Assembly (NCBI GenBank): GCA_965228475.1
Contig: OZ245817.1
Location: 2,400,001-2,464,000, forward strand
DNA: 64,000 nucleotides
Reading direction: 5' to 3'
From: Myxococcota bacterium
GTDB taxonomy: Bacteria; Myxococcota_A; UBA9160; JAFDDA01
Below the pieces are notes generated by a model. The model made no database searches. It was given only the letters and a program-made list of their open reading frames with translations, and was not told the DNA's origin. The translations under genes were made by a program, and so were the position numbers. The first letter of the stretch is position 1; each line of letters starts with the position of its first letter. This document shows, in pieces, positions 1 to 58,126 of the stretch.

Positions 1-199
1 CCTTCTCGCGGTCCTCGAGGCCTTCGACGTTGGCGTGGTAGTGCGAGAGCAGCGGTGTGTCGAAGTAGACGTTGTTCACGAAGCGCGGCGGGTGGAGCGT
101 CCGGAAGCCCGCGGGATGCTGGGCCACCATGCGCCGGACCTGACCGAAGGAGAGATCCTGGACGTGGGCCTTGCGCTCGAAGCGCAGGTCGTCGCTCAC
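1..199 (-). CDS. VTC (polyphosphate polymerase/CYTH-like) domain protein, 5' part; runs off window
   Basis: Not in the ORF track. Manual translation from GTG at 199 gives MSDDLRFERKAHV...PRFVNNVYFDTPLLSHYHANVEGLEDREK, with the RxExK and NxYFDT motifs of the VTC family. GTGA overlap with the stop of the upstream CotH gene. Confidence 0.8.
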   Translation of the reverse strand, partial: MSDDLRFERKAHVQDLSFGQVRRMVAQHPAGFRTLHPPRFVNNVYFDTPLLSHYHANVEGLEDREK

Positions 200-8603: not shown

Positions 8604-9323
8604 TCAGGGCAGGAAGAGCAGCGGGTCCTGGGGCGTCCGGCCGCGTCGGACTTCGAAGTGTAGGTGCGGCCCCGTGGATCGGCCCGTCGAGCCGACCTCG
8701 GCGATCTTGTCCCCGCGCCGCACCCAATCGTTGCGCTTCACGTGGAGCTTGCGGGCGTGGGCATACACCGTGGTGTACTGCTTCGAGTGCCGGATCACGA
8801 CGACCTTGCCGTAGGCCCCGAGCGGCCCGCTGTGGATCACCCGGCCGGATTCGGCGGCTCGGATGGGGGTGCCGGGCCGGGCGGCGAGGTCGATGCCCTG
8901 GTGCTTCCGCCCCCAGCGCCGCCCGAACTTCGAGGTGAGGCGCCCTTCGCTCGGCCAGCGGAAGGAGAGATCCTCGCGGCGTGCATCGCGGCGGGCGGCT
9001 TCGCGCGAGGGCGCTTCCTTCCGTTCGATGCCGCGGATCACGCCGGGCGTCCCGGAACCGGTGCCCTCGGGCGGCTTCCCGCCCGGAACCCAGATGCGCC
9101 GCCCGGCGGCGACCTCGCGCACGTCGCGGATGCGGTTCGCGCGCACGATGCGCTTCACGCTCGTCCCGTAGTTCTGGGCGACGCTCCAGACGGTCTCGCC
9201 GGGCCGCAGGACGTGCCAGGCGCCCACGGGCTTCGGGTTGCTGAAGCAACCGCCGAGCAGCGGCAGCACGAAGCACCCGGACAGTGCGGCGAGACGAAGC
9301 TCGCGCCGGGCTAGGCGGCCCAC
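8604..9323 (-). CDS. LysM + M23 peptidase lipoprotein (NlpD-like)
   Basis: Lipobox LGGC, LysM (HVLRPGETVWSVAQNYG), HQGID and HLHFEVR. Start approximate (GTG 9323). Confidence 0.85.
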   Translation of the reverse strand: MGRLARRELRLAALSGCFVLPLLGGCFSNPKPVGAWHVLRPGETVWSVAQNYGTSVKRIVRANRIRDVREVAAGRRIWVPGGKPPEGTGSGTPGVIRGIERKEAPSREAARRDARREDLSFRWPSEGRLTSKFGRRWGRKHQGIDLAARPGTPIRAAESGRVIHSGPLGAYGKVVVIRHSKQYTTVYAHARKLHVKRNDWVRRGDKIAEVGSTGRSTGPHLHFEVRRGRTPQDPLLFLP

Positions 9324-10015
9324 CCGTCGGCCCCGACGAGATCCACGAACCGCGCGGGCCCGAGGATCTCGCGTTCGAAGAGTCCCTCGGCGGTGCGCCG
9401 GATGCGCACCAGACGCTGCTCGCCGCGCTCGCCGAAGGGGCCGACGAGCCGACCTCCCGGTGCGAGCTGTTCGAGCAGTGCCACGGGGACGCGCGGGCCC
9501 CCGGCCGTGACGACGATGGCGTCGAAGGGGGCATCGGCCGGGCGTCCGTGGGTGCCGTCGCCTTCGTGGACGACGACGTTCTCGATGGCGAGGGTCTCGA
9601 GCGCCGCTCGGGCTCGCTCGGCCAGCGCCGCGAAGCGTTCGATGGAGATGACCCGGCCGCACAGGTTCGCGAGCACCGCGGCCTGGTAGGCCGAGCCCGT
9701 TCCGACCTCGAGCACGGTCTCGCCGCCGCGCAGGCGCAGGGCCGCGGTCATGGCCGCCACGGTCCGGGGTGCCGAGATGGTCTGGCCTTCGCCGATCGGG
9801 AGCGCCTCGTCCTCGCGGTAGGCGCGGCCGCGCAGGGCCTCGGGGATGAGCAGATCGCGCGGGACGCGGGCCAGGGCGCGCAGGACCCGCCGGTCGCGCA
9901 GCCCATCGCTCGCCAGGCGCGCGACCATGCGGCGCCGCGCCAGGGCATAGCGCGCAAAACGCCGTTCGCGCCGCGCAGCGCCCTCGTTCCTCTCCACTTC
10001 CCAGTCCATGGACAT
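9311..10015 (-). CDS. pcm: Protein-L-isoaspartate O-methyltransferase
   Basis: C-terminal part of ORF 9311..12745: LPIGEGQTISAP, VLEVGTGSAYQAAVL, APFDAIVVTA. Start ATG 10015 or 10009. Confidence 0.92.
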   Translation of the reverse strand: MSMDWEVERNEGAARRERRFARYALARRRMVARLASDGLRDRRVLRALARVPRDLLIPEALRGRAYREDEALPIGEGQTISAPRTVAAMTAALRLRGGETVLEVGTGSAYQAAVLANLCGRVISIERFAALAERARAALETLAIENVVVHEGDGTHGRPADAPFDAIVVTAGGPRVPVALLEQLAPGGRLVGPFGERGEQRLVRIRRTAEGLFEREILGPARFVDLVGADGWAA

Positions 10016-52230: not shown

Positions 52231-54081
52231 CTACGCCGAGAGCGCGATGCCGAGATCGCGCTGCAGGCCGAAAGCCAGGTGTTCGACGAGCGCCCGGTCC
52301 GCGGTATGGAAGAGGCACTCGTCCCCCTCCTCGGCCGCGCCGCGCAACAGGGCATAGGCCGGGCCCTCGCCGTAGTAGAGGACGAAGGGATGCGTGATGC
52401 CGGCCTCCTCGGCCACGACCGTCGTCAGCGGAATGCCGGCCGGCGCCTCGGCCCCGTCGGCCACGAAGATCACCTGGGTGCCGAGCTCGACCCCGCGCAG
52501 GGCTTCGAGGCCTTCGCGCAGGGACGGCGAGAGCGGGCCCCCGGGCGCGAGGAACAGGAGGCCGCGGTCGCCCGGGCGCCGGACGAGCTCGTCGAGAAGG
52601 AAGCGCGTGGCCTGCTCCGCGGTGCGCGGCGCGCCCGGGCCGGCCACCCGCAGGAGGCCGGCGGCCATCTCCTCGAATGGCGTCTCCCCGCCGACGAGTT
52701 CCTTGGCGACGCTCGTGCGGGCCTCCTCGAGGCGGGCGTCGAGCACGCGGACGAGCGGTTCGAGCTGGTCGCCATCGCCCGGGAAGGTCGCCGCCGAGAG
52801 CGTGACCTCGGGCTGGAGGTCGCAGCCCTCGGGCTTCAAGACGGACTCGCGAGCGATCATGTCGCGGATGCGGCGCTTCAGGACGGCGGCGCCGAGGGCA
52901 TCGGTCTCCGGGAGCAGGATCCGGTAGCGCGCGTCGCTCTCGGTCGCGACGAGGTCCGTCGCACGCAGGGCGCGCCCGATGTGGAAGACGATCGACTCGA
53001 GCCAGTGGCCGAGCTCCGGGTCCGAGAGCCGCTGGCGCATGGGCGCCAGGTTCCCGAGCTCGAGCTTCAGCATCGAGAAGTGCCGGCCGAAGCGGCTCGC
53101 CTTGTTGATCTCGTTGCGCGCGAGGTCCTCGAAGTAGGCGAGCGTGTAGGCCTTGGTCGTCGGGTCCTTGAAAGAGCGACGCTCGAGGGAGCGGAAGCGC
53201 TGGGCGTTGCCGAGGGCGAGCCCCGAGAGGTCCACGAACTTCTCGACGGCGGCGCGGTCGGAGTCCTCGAAGGCCGCGCGCTCGAGCTTGTCCGTCAGCC
53301 GCGCGAGGGCCACGAGGCTCCCGTTGCGCACGAAGGGAACGTAGAGCGCGCCGGCCGCCTGCTCGTGCCCCGCAAGATCGTGGACGCTGTCGATCACGCA
53401 GCTCGTCCCCGCCGGATCGCTGAGATCGGAGAGCTCCGTCGGGAAGCGGCTCGGCAGGATCTCCTCGGGCTCGTCGACCATGCGCACGAGGCCCTTGGCG
53501 GCCACCAGGCGCAGGGTGTTCGCGTCCTCGCTCGGCTGGGCCCAGAGCACGCCGCCCTGGGCACCGGTCTCGAGACAGAGCCCGTCGACGATGCGCTCGG
53601 CCAGGGGCTCGAGCGAGAGCGTCGCGAACAGGCCCATGGCCCGCTCGTAGAGCGAGAGCTCGCCCATGTAGTCGAGGTTCTCTTGCATCAGGCGGTGATG
53701 CTCGTTCTCGAGCCGCCGCCGCTCGAAGAGCCGTTCGAGGGTGTGCTGGAGGGCGCCGCGCTCGATCGGCTTCAGCTGGTAGTCGAGCGCGCCCTGCTTC
53801 ATGCACTCGACGGCGGTCTTCACGTCGCCGCCGCTCGCGAGCACGACGATGCCGAGGTCCGGGTAGCCGTCGCGCAGGGCGCGGACGAAATCGGTGCCAT
53901 CGGCGTCGGGCAACAGCACGTCGGTCAGGACGACGTCGAAGTTCTCGCGTTCGAGGGCGCGGCGGGCTTCCGCGGCGGAGCCCGCCGTGCGGACCTCATA
54001 GCCGTCCTCTCCCAGGAGCTCTTCGATGAAGGCCCGGAAGTACGGTTGATCGTCGACTGCGAGTATTCGTCCGCTCGGCAC
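52231..54081 (-). CDS. Response regulator REC + GAF + degenerate GGDEF + DICT-like domain protein
   Basis: ILAVDD...LTD...LKP; GAF ending FEDSD; DPTTKAY...DLVATESDARYRILLPET. GTG 54081 follows GGGGGG. Confidence 0.78.
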   Translation of the reverse strand: MPSGRILAVDDQPYFRAFIEELLGEDGYEVRTAGSAAEARRALERENFDVVLTDVLLPDADGTDFVRALRDGYPDLGIVVLASGGDVKTAVECMKQGALDYQLKPIERGALQHTLERLFERRRLENEHHRLMQENLDYMGELSLYERAMGLFATLSLEPLAERIVDGLCLETGAQGGVLWAQPSEDANTLRLVAAKGLVRMVDEPEEILPSRFPTELSDLSDPAGTSCVIDSVHDLAGHEQAAGALYVPFVRNGSLVALARLTDKLERAAFEDSDRAAVEKFVDLSGLALGNAQRFRSLERRSFKDPTTKAYTLAYFEDLARNEINKASRFGRHFSMLKLELGNLAPMRQRLSDPELGHWLESIVFHIGRALRATDLVATESDARYRILLPETDALGAAVLKRRIRDMIARESVLKPEGCDLQPEVTLSAATFPGDGDQLEPLVRVLDARLEEARTSVAKELVGGETPFEEMAAGLLRVAGPGAPRTAEQATRFLLDELVRRPGDRGLLFLAPGGPLSPSLREGLEALRGVELGTQVIFVADGAEAPAGIPLTTVVAEEAGITHPFVLYYGEGPAYALLRGAAEEGDECLFHTADRALVEHLAFGLQRDLGIALSA

Positions 54082-54113: not shown

Positions 54114-55589
54114 CTAGTGGCCTTGCGACGCCAGACCCTCGGGCCCGGGATCGCCGGCTGCCGCGGGCCCACGCGGCCCGCCCCTGCGCAACCCATCGGC
54201 AGAATCGCCTCCGGGCTTCACTCCATCCAGTGATTTCGGACGTCCGATCATGGAGTGGGGGGTCGCCTCCACGATTTCGACGCGGGCCAGGGCCCCCGGC
54301 GCCAGCTCCGCACCGCCCTCGAGGTTCACGCGGCGATGGTGGGCGTCGCGCCCGCAGAGCTGGCGGCCTCCGCGGCGGCTCGGCCCTTCCACCCGCACCT
54401 CGACCGTCGTGCCGACCCGGCTGCGATGCGTAGCCAGCCGGAGCCGGGCCTGGAGCGCCTGGAGGCGTTCGAGCCGGTCCTGGGCCACGTCCTCGGCCAC
54501 CTCGCCGGGCAGCTCGGAGGCCCGCGTGCCCGGCCGCGGCGAGTACTTGAAGGAGAAGCTGTCGACGAACCCGACGGCCTCGACGAGCGCCAGGGTCGCC
54601 TCGAAGTCCTCCTCGGTCTCCCCCGGGAAGCCCACGATCAGGTCCGTCGTGAGGTCGATGTCGCTGCGCGCGGCGCGCAGGGCCGCCACGATCTCGAGGT
54701 ACTCCGCCGCCGTGTAGCGGCGCCGCATGAGCTCGAGCATCCGGTCCGAACCGCTCTGCACCGGGAGGTGGACGTGGGGGCAGAGCCGCTCGAGCTTCGC
54801 GTGGGCGGCCACGAGCGCCTCGTCGAAGAAGAGCGGGTGCGGGCTCGTGTAGCGGATGCGGTCGAGGCCCGGCGTCGCATCGAGCGCCGCGAGCAGCTCC
54901 GCGAAGGGCATCGTGCCGAGGGCCTCGGCCTTGCCCCGGCGCACGTCGTGCCGGCCGTAGGCGTTCACGGTCTGGCCGAGCAGCGTGATTTCGCGGACCC
55001 CCTGCGCGGCGAGCTGGCGCGCTTCTTCGAGGATCCCGGCGGCGGGCCGGCTGATCTCGCGGCCGCGCGTCGTCGGCACGATGCAGAAGCTGCAAAACAT
55101 GTCGCAGCCCTCCATCACCGTGAGGAAGGCGCGGCCCGGCGTCGTGCTCGAGAAGGACGGATGGCGCTCGGGCAGGTCGAAGCGGTCGAGCGAGCGCGAC
55201 TCTTCGGTGCGCACCGCCCGCTGGCCGTCGAGGGCCGCCTCCGCCAGGGCCGGCACGCGCACGAGGTTGTGCGTCCCGAAGACGAAGTCCACCTGGTCGA
55301 AGCGGTCGAGCAGGACGTCGCCCTCCTGCTGGGCCACGCAGCCTCCCACGCCGATCACGCGTTCGGGCCGGGCCTCCTTCCAGGCGCGGAGCTTGCCGAC
55401 GTCGCTGTAGAGCTTGTGCTCGACCTTGTCCCGGATCGAGCAGGTATTCACGATCAGGAGATCCGCCGAGTCCGGATCCGCTGCGGCCTCGTAGCCCGCA
55501 TGGTGGAGCAGGTTCGACACCTTCTCGGTGTCGTGGACGTTCATCTGGCATCCAAAGGTGCGGATCCAGAAGCGGCGAGGCTCGGCCAC
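54114..55589 (-). CDS. miaB: tRNA-2-methylthio-N6-dimethylallyladenosine synthase
   Basis: TFGCQMN, NTCSIR, GCVAQ, CDMFCSFC, VGFPGETEEDF, TRAM; start GTG 55589. Confidence 0.96.
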   Translation of the reverse strand: MAEPRRFWIRTFGCQMNVHDTEKVSNLLHHAGYEAAADPDSADLLIVNTCSIRDKVEHKLYSDVGKLRAWKEARPERVIGVGGCVAQQEGDVLLDRFDQVDFVFGTHNLVRVPALAEAALDGQRAVRTEESRSLDRFDLPERHPSFSSTTPGRAFLTVMEGCDMFCSFCIVPTTRGREISRPAAGILEEARQLAAQGVREITLLGQTVNAYGRHDVRRGKAEALGTMPFAELLAALDATPGLDRIRYTSPHPLFFDEALVAAHAKLERLCPHVHLPVQSGSDRMLELMRRRYTAAEYLEIVAALRAARSDIDLTTDLIVGFPGETEEDFEATLALVEAVGFVDSFSFKYSPRPGTRASELPGEVAEDVAQDRLERLQALQARLRLATHRSRVGTTVEVRVEGPSRRGGRQLCGRDAHHRRVNLEGGAELAPGALARVEIVEATPHSMIGRPKSLDGVKPGGDSADGLRRGGPRGPAAAGDPGPEGLASQGH

Positions 55590-55705: not shown

Positions 55706-55801
55706 ACGCCACCCGGGGCCCATTCGGCCCGCAAATAGACGTGCAAAATCAGGGTCATCGGTCGGGAATCGTTGATGTTTTGCGGGCGAGGAAAAACGTG
55801 T

Positions 55802-55829
55802 TTGACAACGTTCGGGCCCCCTGCATAAT
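55802..55829 (+). promoter_or_regulatory. Near-consensus sigma70 promoter with no CDS downstream
   Basis: TTGACA-N16-CATAAT with an A/T-rich upstream region. Confidence 0.65.
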
Positions 55830-55836
55830 GGCTCTC

Positions 55837-55955
55837 GGAGGGCCGGTGGATTAGACATTTCGAGTTCGAAATGTCCAACCTCTCACCCCCCATAATCCGT
55901 CCACCGGACCTCCACGCATTCGAAAAGCCCCGCTGGGAAACCAGCGGGGCTTTTT
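55837..55955 (+). ncRNA. Putative ~120-nt small RNA
   Basis: Lies between the promoter and terminator. Closing stem GGAGG.CCGGTGGA/TCCACCGG.CCTCC, 9-bp hairpin GACATTTCG-AGTT-CGAAATGTC, C-rich linker. Confidence 0.65.
55922..55955. terminator. Bidirectional intrinsic terminator
   Basis: AAAAGCCCCGCTGG-GAAA-CCAGCGGGGCTTTTT; U-tracts on both strands. Confidence 0.9.
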
Positions 55956-55999: not shown

Positions 56000-56695
56000 T
56001 CACCCGTAGACCATCTCCGGGTACATGAGGTCGACGGCGAAGAAGAAGACCGGCATGAAGATCTCGTCGAAGATCCGCCACGCGATCAGGATGCCGATCC
56101 AACCGAGCATCGGCTCCCGGGTCACGTTCATCCACGCCTCGCTGGCGCGCTCGCTGAGGAGCAGCGGCAGCGCGCCTGCCCCATCGAGGGGCGGGACCGG
56201 GAGGAGATTCAGCACGAACAGCACCAGGTTCATGGAGAAGAATACGCCGACGATGTAGCCGACCTGCTCGAGGCCCGGCGTTGCCGCCGCGGTGATGGCC
56301 GCGAAGCGGATGGAAGGCGGGGGGAAGAAGATTTCGAGTGCGATCCCCGCGCGAATCAGCAAGGCCGCGATCAGCACGAGTGCGAGGTTCGCCGCAGGCC
56401 CCGCCAGCGCCATCCAGGCTGCGCGCCGCGGGTGAGCCCGCGCCCAATCCGGGTCGTACGGGGCGCTCGCAAAGCCGAACGGCCAGCCCGAGATCGCCAC
56501 CGTGATCAGCGGCAACAGCACCATCCCCACGGGCTCGCGCCGGATGTGGGGAATCGGGTCGAGCGTGACCTGCCCCCCGTGGTACGCGGTCGGATCTCCG
56601 CCGCGGAGCGCCGCCCACGCATGCGCCGCCTCGTGAACGGTCACCGAAAACAGGAACGCGACGTAGAAGACGAGGGCTCCGACCGGGTCTTCCAT
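56000..56695 (-). CDS. Site-2 protease family (M50) membrane metalloprotease
   Basis: HEAAH, GDPTA, LAGPAAN and NLLPVPPLDG motifs. Confidence 0.92.
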   Translation of the reverse strand: MEDPVGALVFYVAFLFSVTVHEAAHAWAALRGGDPTAYHGGQVTLDPIPHIRREPVGMVLLPLITVAISGWPFGFASAPYDPDWARAHPRRAAWMALAGPAANLALVLIAALLIRAGIALEIFFPPPSIRFAAITAAATPGLEQVGYIVGVFFSMNLVLFVLNLLPVPPLDGAGALPLLLSERASEAWMNVTREPMLGWIGILIAWRIFDEIFMPVFFFAVDLMYPEMVYG

Positions 56696-56704
56696 CGGCG
56701 CCGG

Positions 56705-58126
56705 CTACAGGATCAGGCCGTCGACGATCTTCGAGAGCTGGCGGAGGTTGCGGACCTCCTCGGCCACGTCGGTGTAGGGCAGATAGCGATCCATCACGGA
56801 GTCGCCGAAGCCCCAGGCGCCGGGGCTCTCCGGGTTCAGCCAGACGACGTTCTTGGCCTTGTCGTGGATGTCGCGCACGCACCAGGCCTTCGGGTCGTTG
56901 TAGTTGTTGCGGGCGTCCCCGAGGATCAGGACCGTGGTCTTGTTGTCGACCGCCGAGAGGAAGTCGCGCCAGAAGGTGTGGAACGCGAAGCCGAAGTTGC
57001 TGCGCGTGTAGACGTTGATCACGCCGCCGCCGTCGAGGGCGCTCTCGACGGCCTCGTTCACTTCCTTTTCCTGGAAGACCGAGGAGACCTCGCCGAGCTC
57101 CGCCACGAACACGAAGGTCCGGATCTTGGTGAAGGCTTCCTGCAGCGCGTACATGAACTGCAGCATGAAGCGCGAGACGTTCGCCACGGAGCTCGAGACG
57201 TCGCACAGGATCACGAGCTTCGGGCGGTCCTTCTTCTTCTGCTTGTAGACCACGTCGAAGGGCACGCCGCCGTGGCTCATGTTCTTGCGCAGCGTGTAGT
57301 GGAGGTCGAGCTTCCCCTTCTTCAGGCGGCGGCGGCGGATCGAGAGGATGTTCTTGATGCGCTGGGCGAGGCGGTTCACGACCTCGCGCATCTGCTTGAT
57401 CTCTTCCTCGGTCAGGTTGTAGAAGCTCTTCTCGAGCAGGCTCTCGCGGCGGAACTTCTCCATGTAGTCGAGGTTCTGCTTGCGCAGCTCGCGCTCGGTG
57501 AAGTTGCGCACGGTCTTGCGGAGCGCTTCCTGGATCCGGCCGAGGTGCTCCATCAGCCCCTCGACCTCCTCCTCGCCCATGCCCGCGTCGCGCAGACGCT
57601 GGGCCAGCGCTTCGAGCTGCCCCATCGCGCCCTCGGCGTTCATCTGCTCAAGGATGCGGCGCGTGAAGAAGCCGACCTGGAGCATGTTCTCGATGCGGCC
57701 GGTCCCCGCCTGCTCGGCGGCGTCGCGGATCATCTGCTCGAGCTGGTCGAGGTCCATGGTCAGGAGCGCCTGGGCGAGGTCGTTCAGGTCGATGTCGCCC
57801 GGGTCCATCTCGCCCATCAGCTCCTGGAGCCGCTGCATGAGCTGATCCATGTCCATGCCTTCGGGAAGGCCGCCGGCGGCGCCTTCGAAGTTCTGGCGGA
57901 GCTCGTCGTAGAAGCCCGACCAGAAGAGGTCGAAGAGCTGGTCGAAGGTCCCGATGTCCTCGTTCTTCTTGACCATGGACGCGCGCAGGGCGTCCTTGAA
58001 GATCTCGCGCTCGTCGAGCGAGAGGCGGTCGAGGGCGTCGAAGGCGTCGATCGACTCCGCCACCGACACCCGAACGCCGCTCTTCCGAAGCAGATTCCCG
58101 AACTCGACGAGCTTCTTCTGCATCAA
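56705..58126 (-). CDS. CoxE-like VWA domain protein
   Basis: LCDVSSSV MIDAS, ILGDARNNY and VWLNPE motifs. Confidence 0.9.
   Translation of the reverse strand: MMQKKLVEFGNLLRKSGVRVSVAESIDAFDALDRLSLDEREIFKDALRASMVKKNEDIGTFDQLFDLFWSGFYDELRQNFEGAAGGLPEGMDMDQLMQRLQELMGEMDPGDIDLNDLAQALLTMDLDQLEQMIRDAAEQAGTGRIENMLQVGFFTRRILEQMNAEGAMGQLEALAQRLRDAGMGEEEVEGLMEHLGRIQEALRKTVRNFTERELRKQNLDYMEKFRRESLLEKSFYNLTEEEIKQMREVVNRLAQRIKNILSIRRRRLKKGKLDLHYTLRKNMSHGGVPFDVVYKQKKKDRPKLVILCDVSSSVANVSRFMLQFMYALQEAFTKIRTFVFVAELGEVSSVFQEKEVNEAVESALDGGGVINVYTRSNFGFAFHTFWRDFLSAVDNKTTVLILGDARNNYNDPKAWCVRDIHDKAKNVVWLNPESPGAWGFGDSVMDRYLPYTDVAEEVRNLRQLSKIVDGLIL

Follow-up and report, generated by a model that had tools for sequence, protein, structure and literature searches.

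Which messages, if any, are addressed by the short interval upstream of miaB in this Myxococcota genome? Within the window (the whole stretch of DNA that was analysed, 64,000 nucleotides), the original prediction had placed an orphan small RNA with a C-rich loop at this position and had proposed an undescribed trans-acting regulator. The predicted regulator is supported by sequence conservation and covariation, by a strand bias and by target sites kept among relatives, and the likely targets, as read from sequence, are ftsA and ftsZ, both of them outside the window; the term orphan had to be given up, since the RNA is class-wide and syntenic and has phage copies too.

Transcription unit, fold and covariation

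Promoter, stem, hairpin, loop and terminator were all recovered where they had originally been placed (Table 1). The unit is non-coding, has its own promoter and terminator and lies on the strand opposite to its neighbours, i.e. the genes for MiaB, an M50 peptidase and the VWA-CoxE protein are all on the minus strand as first described. The promoter (TTGACA-16 nt-CATAAT) matches the consensus at 11 of 12 positions, shuffled sequences yield 0.2 such sites, and the pattern TTGACA-16..18-YATAAT has its sole occurrence in the 5.0-Mb genome here, which extends the earlier claim of a near-consensus promoter from the window to the whole genome. Of 119 homologues with a promoter, 87-92% have A at the positions of the upstream A-tract. 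The RNA is single-copy, with no paralogues found in its own genome. Among the sequencing runs listed for this sequence none is of RNA, which counts neither way as to expression; three contig runs confirm the DNA and may be where it came from. A leader peptide starting at an internal AUG was rejected, as indels of +1 and +2 disrupt its frame in two homologues (L008 and L020). The M50 peptidase gene (window 56000-56695, minus strand) between the RNA and the VWA-CoxE gene is present in this genome only among the 30 loci L001-L030 and is a local insertion. In the homologue alignment the terminator stem carries double changes at 8 of 14 pairs; the terminator is probably bidirectional and would also end the minus-strand AAA-VWA-M50 transcript. 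It did not appear in the output of a simple terminator scan, probably because its A-tract pairs with the U-tract.

Table 1. Features of the small RNA locus and related genes, in window coordinates.
Feature	Position	Strand	Basis
A-tract, putative UP-like element or factor site	55793..55795	+	9-7 nt upstream of -35 box
-35 box TTGACA	55802..55807	+	promoter scan
-10 box CATAAT	55824..55829	+	promoter scan; 16-nt spacer to -35
Predicted small RNA, ~120 nt	55837..55955	+	fold, conservation; putative 5' end 7 nt past -10 box
Closing stem P1, 5' arm	55837..55851	+	covariation
Inner hairpin P2, 9 bp, variable loop	55854..55875	+	pairs 55854-62/55867-75; covariation
Invariant single-stranded seed AACCUCUCACCCCCCA	55877..55892	+	complement of ftsA/ftsZ ribosome-binding sites
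Closing stem P1, 3' arm	55899..55913	+	covariation
Intrinsic terminator	55924..55955	+	fold; stem 55927-50, U5 55951-55
miaB-type radical SAM gene, divergent neighbour	54114..55574	-	Pfam UPF0004+Radical_SAM+TRAM
VWA-CoxE gene, convergent neighbour	56705..58126	-	domain search
pcm, weaker candidate target	9311..10015	-	NCBIfam; G-run RBS

The RNA folds with a z-score of -7.3, and none of 200 shuffles was equally stable. The closing stem (55837-50/55900-13) consists of 13 pairs with one G.A mismatch, to which the minimum free energy structure adds U55851.G55899, and in two copies (L667 and G018) the sequence of P2 is replaced with its pairing retained. The loop at 55876-98 is unpaired, the computed cost of opening the 16-nt seed is 0.24 kcal/mol, and the seed is invariant in both alignments inspected (A1 and A3). 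Among 45 copies from both orders of the class in which the RNA was aligned, 97.5% of the alignment cells pair, compared to 40-51% in slid registers, and double changes occur in 5 of 16 core pairs, a value reached by none of 500 shuffles in a test that is inflated by the relatedness of the copies. Since the core stems contain 30 G-U and no A-C cells, the plus strand is the RNA, and an RNA from the minus strand is ruled out. The covariation analysis suggested along with the first description shows covarying stems, an invariant seed and a structure conserved across the class. The alternative GGATTA/TAATCC register proposed for the closing stem is present here, but as a suboptimal fold only, and its 3' half is variable among homologues.

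The promoter pattern was found in 119 of 138 distinct copies at 7-172 nt upstream of the core. The 103 long-leader copies carry U at positions -4 and -3 before GGAG in 93% and 95% of cases, and in the six short-leader copies, which include that of our own genome, position -3 is never U. RNase E cleaves at U-rich sites, and this distribution fits trimming at such a site: in most relatives, a longer precursor would be trimmed at the conserved UU just 5' of the stem. GGAG or GAGG was seen in 65 of 79 leaders of at least 35 nt (L001-L190), a count taken without a chance control. Judged by complementarity, base-pairing of these motifs to the seed may mask it in the precursor until trimming.

Distribution in the class and in phages

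Allowing one mismatch at most, a search for the 16-nt loop was positive in 198 of 225 class genomes and in 111 of the 118 near-complete ones, whereas a reversed control pattern matched 11 genomes in the same search; among the class-genome matches listed, the seed is nearly always single and perfect. We take this class to be GTDB class UBA9160, from labels such as UBA4427 and UBA6930. BLAST returned a strong single match in 56 of 60 relatives, and a covariance model built from 45 copies was positive in 13 of 14 class genomes. Outside the class, the model detected none in 67 genomes of the phylum, a zero obtained with strict filters that drop weak matches and thus short of proving absence, and the seed gave one-mismatch matches in 5 of 51 genomes, none of them perfect (control, 3 of 51). 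A scan of named-species genomes yielded at least 120 loci, 118 of those listed having the whole architecture; all loci listed come from metagenome assemblies, mostly labelled Myxococcota or Deltaproteobacteria. In two sets of loci the RNA is divergent from miaB (29/30 and 27/28) and convergent with the VWA-CoxE gene (25/30 and 28/28). Two genomes (G001 and G025) without a match also lack the miaB-upstream region in their assemblies. In two others (G015 and G157) the seed occurs perfectly on two different contigs, reflecting either duplication or bin contamination. Complete RNAs were also observed in L073, L089, L100, L141 and other records labelled Spirochaetales, Anaerolineales, Opitutales or Gemmatimonadales, which are probably mislabelled or misbinned.

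Four of 52 IMG/VR loci containing the 14-nt seed core show the architecture of the family, with scores of 51.8, 32.1, 30.5 and 27.5 bits and the next locus at 18.5 bits; as all viral loci share the seed, their E-values are inflated. The remaining 48 matches lack this architecture. Two carriers (L611 and L665) are related T4-like contigs encoding clamp, clamp loader and Hsp20, in which the RNA occupies the same intergenic place with the same seed and different stems, and the flanks of the L611 RNA resemble those of the f10 host variant. The other two contigs, one with terminase and scaffold genes (L604) and one with terminase, portal and capsid genes (L610), carry the seed in other RNA scaffolds, the stem in L610 being the least family-like of the four. 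A stem-plus-seed pattern retrieved two known and five chance-like matches in the viral search, and no copy was found in 80 further T4-like relatives (56-70% identity) or in 50,697 GenBank phage records. From their sequences, the phage copies look like captures of a host RNA. A viral contig of 5.9 kb (L609/L638) contains GUGGAU, the seed and an f10-like AUGAGUC with the closing stem absent, and represents either a decayed copy or chance. About ten related low-GC viral contigs (L613-L661, 37-41% GC) have ACCTCTCACCCCCC within a longer pyrimidine tract with repeats upstream; these loci were rejected as copies of the RNA.

Complementarity to ftsA, ftsZ and further genes

Target sites were sought between -30 and +10 of the 4205 genes called in the own genome by a purpose-written script. 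The longest perfect complement of the seed among them belongs to ftsA (11 nt), and ftsZ, the next gene, has a perfect complement of 10 nt. When the 16-nt seed is paired with positions -22 to +3, the duplex energies rank ftsA first and ftsZ 12th of 4205, a narrower setting that was chosen after a wider one; with the wider loop and window the hybrid energies place ftsA at rank 6 and ftsZ at rank 63, and when accessibility is added to this wider setting they stand at 127 and 15 within the top 250. As the ranks shift with the settings, one genome alone is not decisive.

The comparison of genomes is more telling, with the reservation that the genomes are related and the site counts therefore not independent. 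In the own order, a perfect complement of at least 9 nt (GGGGGGUGAGAG) is present at 32 of 50 ftsA and 43 of 50 ftsZ loci, as opposed to 0 of 33 ftsA/ftsZ starts outside the class and, across 20 complete dcw clusters, a single one of the 218 other starts, the genes other than ftsA and ftsZ being those that we took for dcw members by position and recognition. The two genes are the top two of their own cluster in 17 of these 20 genomes, from seven families; outside the class they are the top two in none of nine clusters, and ftsZ alone comes first in four of nine. GGGGG precedes 97 of 100 ftsA/ftsZ starts in the own order and GGAGG none, although GGAGG is the commoner motif genome-wide (867 versus 231 of 4205 genes); outside the class, GGGGG precedes 4 of 33. 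The site coincides with the Shine-Dalgarno (SD) sequence, and 0-9 nt separate it from the start codon in most loci.

Beyond the G-run, the sites discriminate between the small RNA and the ribosome. The base following GGGGUGA is G in 58, A in 17 and U in one, and after GGGGUGAG the sites continue with A in 41 of 58 and then with G in 32 of 41. The 3' tail of the own 16S rRNA is canonical. Pairing with the small RNA needs G after GGGGUGA and pairing with the 16S tail needs U, indicating that the sites spell the complement of the small RNA and not that of 16S rRNA. The seed duplexes with ftsA and ftsZ (-25.2 and -21.6 kcal/mol) are 7-9 kcal/mol better than those of the 16S tail (-15.8 and -14.5 kcal/mol). 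An accessible seed that is conserved, along with conserved complements in mRNAs encoded elsewhere, is what marks the RNA as a putative trans-acting sRNA. In a second order (f13), the seed is identical, yet 0 of 25 ftsA/ftsZ starts have a complement of at least 9 nt; 18 of 25 have five consecutive G (G5), and the sites are mostly plain G-runs.

G5 sites were also frequent among relatives at dnaB (16/20), lpxC (14/19), pcm (15/18), pilC (9/19) and one hydrolase-like gene (7/16), against 6 of 129 at nine neighbouring control genes, with pcm and pilC having been chosen from genomes that are also within their own test sets. The dnaB G-run is found in four of four f13 and none of four out-of-class genomes. 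The pilC sites are patchy, with none in four f13 genomes, and the pcm G-run, noted originally and now seen to be kept in relatives, also occurs in the sole out-of-class orthologue examined. A search for 11-nt sites in five f13 genomes revealed no shared long target and one match at dnaB. An unbiased site screen covered 140 listed matches (110 plus 30), most matches from genome G024 and 24 others being set aside, and led to open reading frames for 103; beyond ftsA and ftsZ, recurrences among those listed were pilC in three genomes and pcm, a 562-aa gene, a Lys/Ala-rich protein and two gene pairs in two genomes each.

Two further genes had been singled out originally. The REC-GAF-GGDEF gene (52231-54081, minus strand) does have a G6 run before its GTG start. 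For the DUF4412 gene, the ribosome-binding site CACCCCCC (14574-81) does complement the seed over 8 nt, but the own genome contains GGGGGGTG 100 times and duplex energy places this gene 61st of 4205; being a weak target, it was dismissed as a key one. Several side observations concern further genes. Two genomic loci from different families (L395 and L460) have a Lys/Ala-rich histone-like protein downstream of a GGGGGGUGA site. A G6 run before the start was listed for 63 genes of the own genome, among them what we take from their N-termini to be rpoB, csrA, ddl, tolQ, lpxD and lipA, and, by NCBIfam, a PBP1A-family gene and topoisomerase III; from these sequences, a wider regulon is possible. 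A G5+ site precedes mraZ in four of seven f13 genomes (L351-L358) and in none of 20 of the own order, so that mraZ is perhaps a lineage-specific target in f13.

Natural variants offer single-case contrasts. Family f9 lacks the class seed. The syntenic element in genome G010 (22.6 bits, expected strand) has new stems and the loop AAUC9, and its ftsA site GGGGGGAUU pairs at -19.8 with its own loop versus -15.9 with the class loop. Its ftsA, ftsZ and dnaB sites pair 4-6 kcal/mol better with the own loop than with the class loop, and for pcm the reverse holds. In this one case, loop and ftsA site appear from their sequences to have changed together. The C-run of G018, a small genome, forms its own hairpin, which no terminator hairpin follows, and ftsA and dnaB have canonical GGAGG sites there.

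Proposed action, alternatives and known RNAs

We consider it probable, from complementarity and conservation, that the RNA is an Hfq-independent repressor of the anti-SD type acting on division and replication genes, similar to 6C/B11 and DicF and a member of neither. The sigma-70-type promoter would give rise to an RNA of ~120 nt, whose closing stem and inner hairpin would keep the 16-nt C-rich seed open. The seed would form 9-14 nt of pairing with GGGGGGUGAGAG(G), the SD region of both ftsA and ftsZ; looser pairing would occur at the G-runs of dnaB, lpxC and, probably, pcm and pilC. Pairing over the SD excludes the 30S subunit; the sRNA would out-compete the 16S anti-SD and block initiation without Hfq, which was not found in the own 96%-complete single-contig genome. 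As the seed would pair with G-run SDs better than the 16S tail does, division, replication and envelope synthesis would be damped together, with lowered levels of division, replication-helicase and envelope proteins, while mRNAs with canonical GGAGG would be mismatched and largely spared. Some phages would have acquired the RNA, and the simplest purpose would be to arrest division and replication of their hosts. If essential genes are repressed by an RNA made from a near-consensus promoter, some further control is required, and none was found in this analysis; regulated processing, decay or titration are candidates, and 6C provides an example of an abundant RNA acting in such a way. The invariant AACC end of the seed, seldom matched by target sites, and the P2 stem are left unexplained by the targets and may bind a protein.

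The same sites could have another outcome: the RNA might set the FtsA:FtsZ ratio, direct or block cleavage of the dcw mRNA, stabilise or activate it, or act as a constitutive buffer. ftsA and ftsZ form one operon with a site in each, the promoter nearest to consensus in the genome suggests constant high levels, and StsR acts on dcw mRNA via RNase E cleavage (PMC8266604, accessible part). We nevertheless regard these outcomes as unlikely compared with repression, given that the sites lie on the SD next to the start codon, that lytic-type phages retain the seed and that 6C is described as abundant in exponential growth (PMC5014011, in part) and yet represses (PMC6486639, in part).

Rather less credit is due to the notion that the G-runs are strong SD variants or a protein site, that the loop binds protein as a sponge or mini 6S-like RNA and that the complementarity is incidental. 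GGGGGUGA does pair with the canonical 16S tail via one G-U (-15.8 kcal/mol), no Rfam 6S RNA was found in the own 96%-complete genome, the f13 sites are mainly plain G-runs, and the targets do not account for the invariant AACC end of the seed. Against incidental complementarity, GGAGG is avoided at all 100 ftsA/ftsZ starts of the order despite its use by 867 of 4205 genes, the site extension (GAGAG) matches the RNA and not 16S rRNA, and loop and site co-change in G010; the rod of 77 nt with a 9-bp upper stem is far short of 6S RNA (187-position model), and the G-U bias excludes a minus-strand sponge. That the region is merely a conserved DNA element or terminator between operons with no functional transcript is highly improbable, for although the terminator appears bidirectional, the covariation is of RNA type with a G-U strand bias, the promoter is kept at varying distance from the core, the targets lie in trans, and phage copies have new stems around the same loop.

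Building on the anti-SD repressor, we tentatively entertain a broader picture, which goes beyond what we would call probable: the class may use a two-tier SD code, with growth genes (ftsA, ftsZ, dnaB, lpxC and others) on G-run SDs, and the RNA, mimicking the 16S 3' end (UCACCCCC versus UCACCUCC), would silence this tier as one switch and spare GGAGG, while unrelated phages including T4-like ones would independently have captured it as a protein-free halt of host division and replication. Apart from this picture, the RNA is of interest as a class-wide one in an Hfq-free genome, with a seed that matches ftsA and ftsZ and, in one instance, has apparently changed together with its target; the lineage is widespread and known here from metagenome assemblies alone. 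The predicted targets are unusually clear, and the candidate phage-captured copies mean that the seed could mark hosts of such phages. To our knowledge, core-genome sRNAs with targets readable from comparative sequence alone are rare, and the ftsZ-directed sRNAs that we know of are accessory or indirect.

At the locus, no Rfam model came close to its gathering score (the best, RNAI, at 22.1 versus 47 bits, was driven by the terminator), nor did any in six homologue loci, so that the Infernal search proposed with the original prediction left the locus without a known family. Neither the seed nor its complement occurred in any of the paper texts searched, and no description of the sRNA was found in the literature searched; supplementary catalogues of ncRNA motifs may contain one. 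It represents a novel family of sRNAs whose type of regulation is already known, with predicted expression and repression. 6S RNA (RF00013, a rod of ~180 nt with a central bubble) is discarded given the 77-nt core and the absence of an RF00013 match in the genome. Pxr of Myxococcales (RF01812, threshold at least 80 bits) scores at best 15.6 bits, elsewhere in the genome. It shares with our RNA an origin on the deltaproteobacterial/myxobacterial side and long plus short processed forms (PMC5684412, accessible text); it differs in lying behind pxrK/pxrR with a sigma-54 promoter, in its three stem-loops and in having direct targets described as unknown in the available part of PMC11928866, whereas our RNA lies between miaB and VWA-CoxE with TTGACA/CATAAT. 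The initial reluctance to claim Pxr homology was well founded, the model being negative and promoter type and neighbours being different.

StsR/UpsM of Rhodobacter sphaeroides likewise represents conserved sRNA control of the dcw cluster, but StsR, which RpoH induces, targets the dcw 5' UTR via RNase E (PMC8266604, accessible part), whereas the sites here coincide with the ftsA and ftsZ SD sequences at the cluster's distal end. DicF, from an E. coli cryptic prophage, represses ftsZ by pairing at its ribosome-binding site and resembles our RNA in complementarity and phage association (PMC5069750, in part). DicF is prophage-borne, accessory and Hfq-dependent; here the locus is core-genome and syntenic, Hfq is absent, ftsA is matched too and there is no Rfam match, which speaks against membership. 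The closest likeness is to 6C/B11 of Actinobacteria, whose C-rich loops repress the G-rich ribosome-binding sites of panD and dnaB without chaperones (PMC6486639, as far as available). Shared are the status of a clade-wide core sRNA, a six-C run complementary to G-rich ribosome-binding sites and a strong primary-sigma promoter, and, here as predictions, the dnaB target, chaperone independence and a link to division (PMC6486639; PMC5014011, both in part); two features of 6C-like action, seed complementarity to ribosome-binding sites and absence of Hfq, are apparent from the genome. Unlike 6C, with its two C-rich hairpin loops, the present RNA has a single C6 run in a 23-nt internal loop, belongs to a different phylum and carries a long UCUC extension that matches ftsA and ftsZ, and the 6C model (RF01066, at least 47 bits) had no match at E<=10 in the own genome. 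The resemblance is likely convergent: the 6C strategy probably arose a second time, independently, and with dnaB again among the predicted targets.
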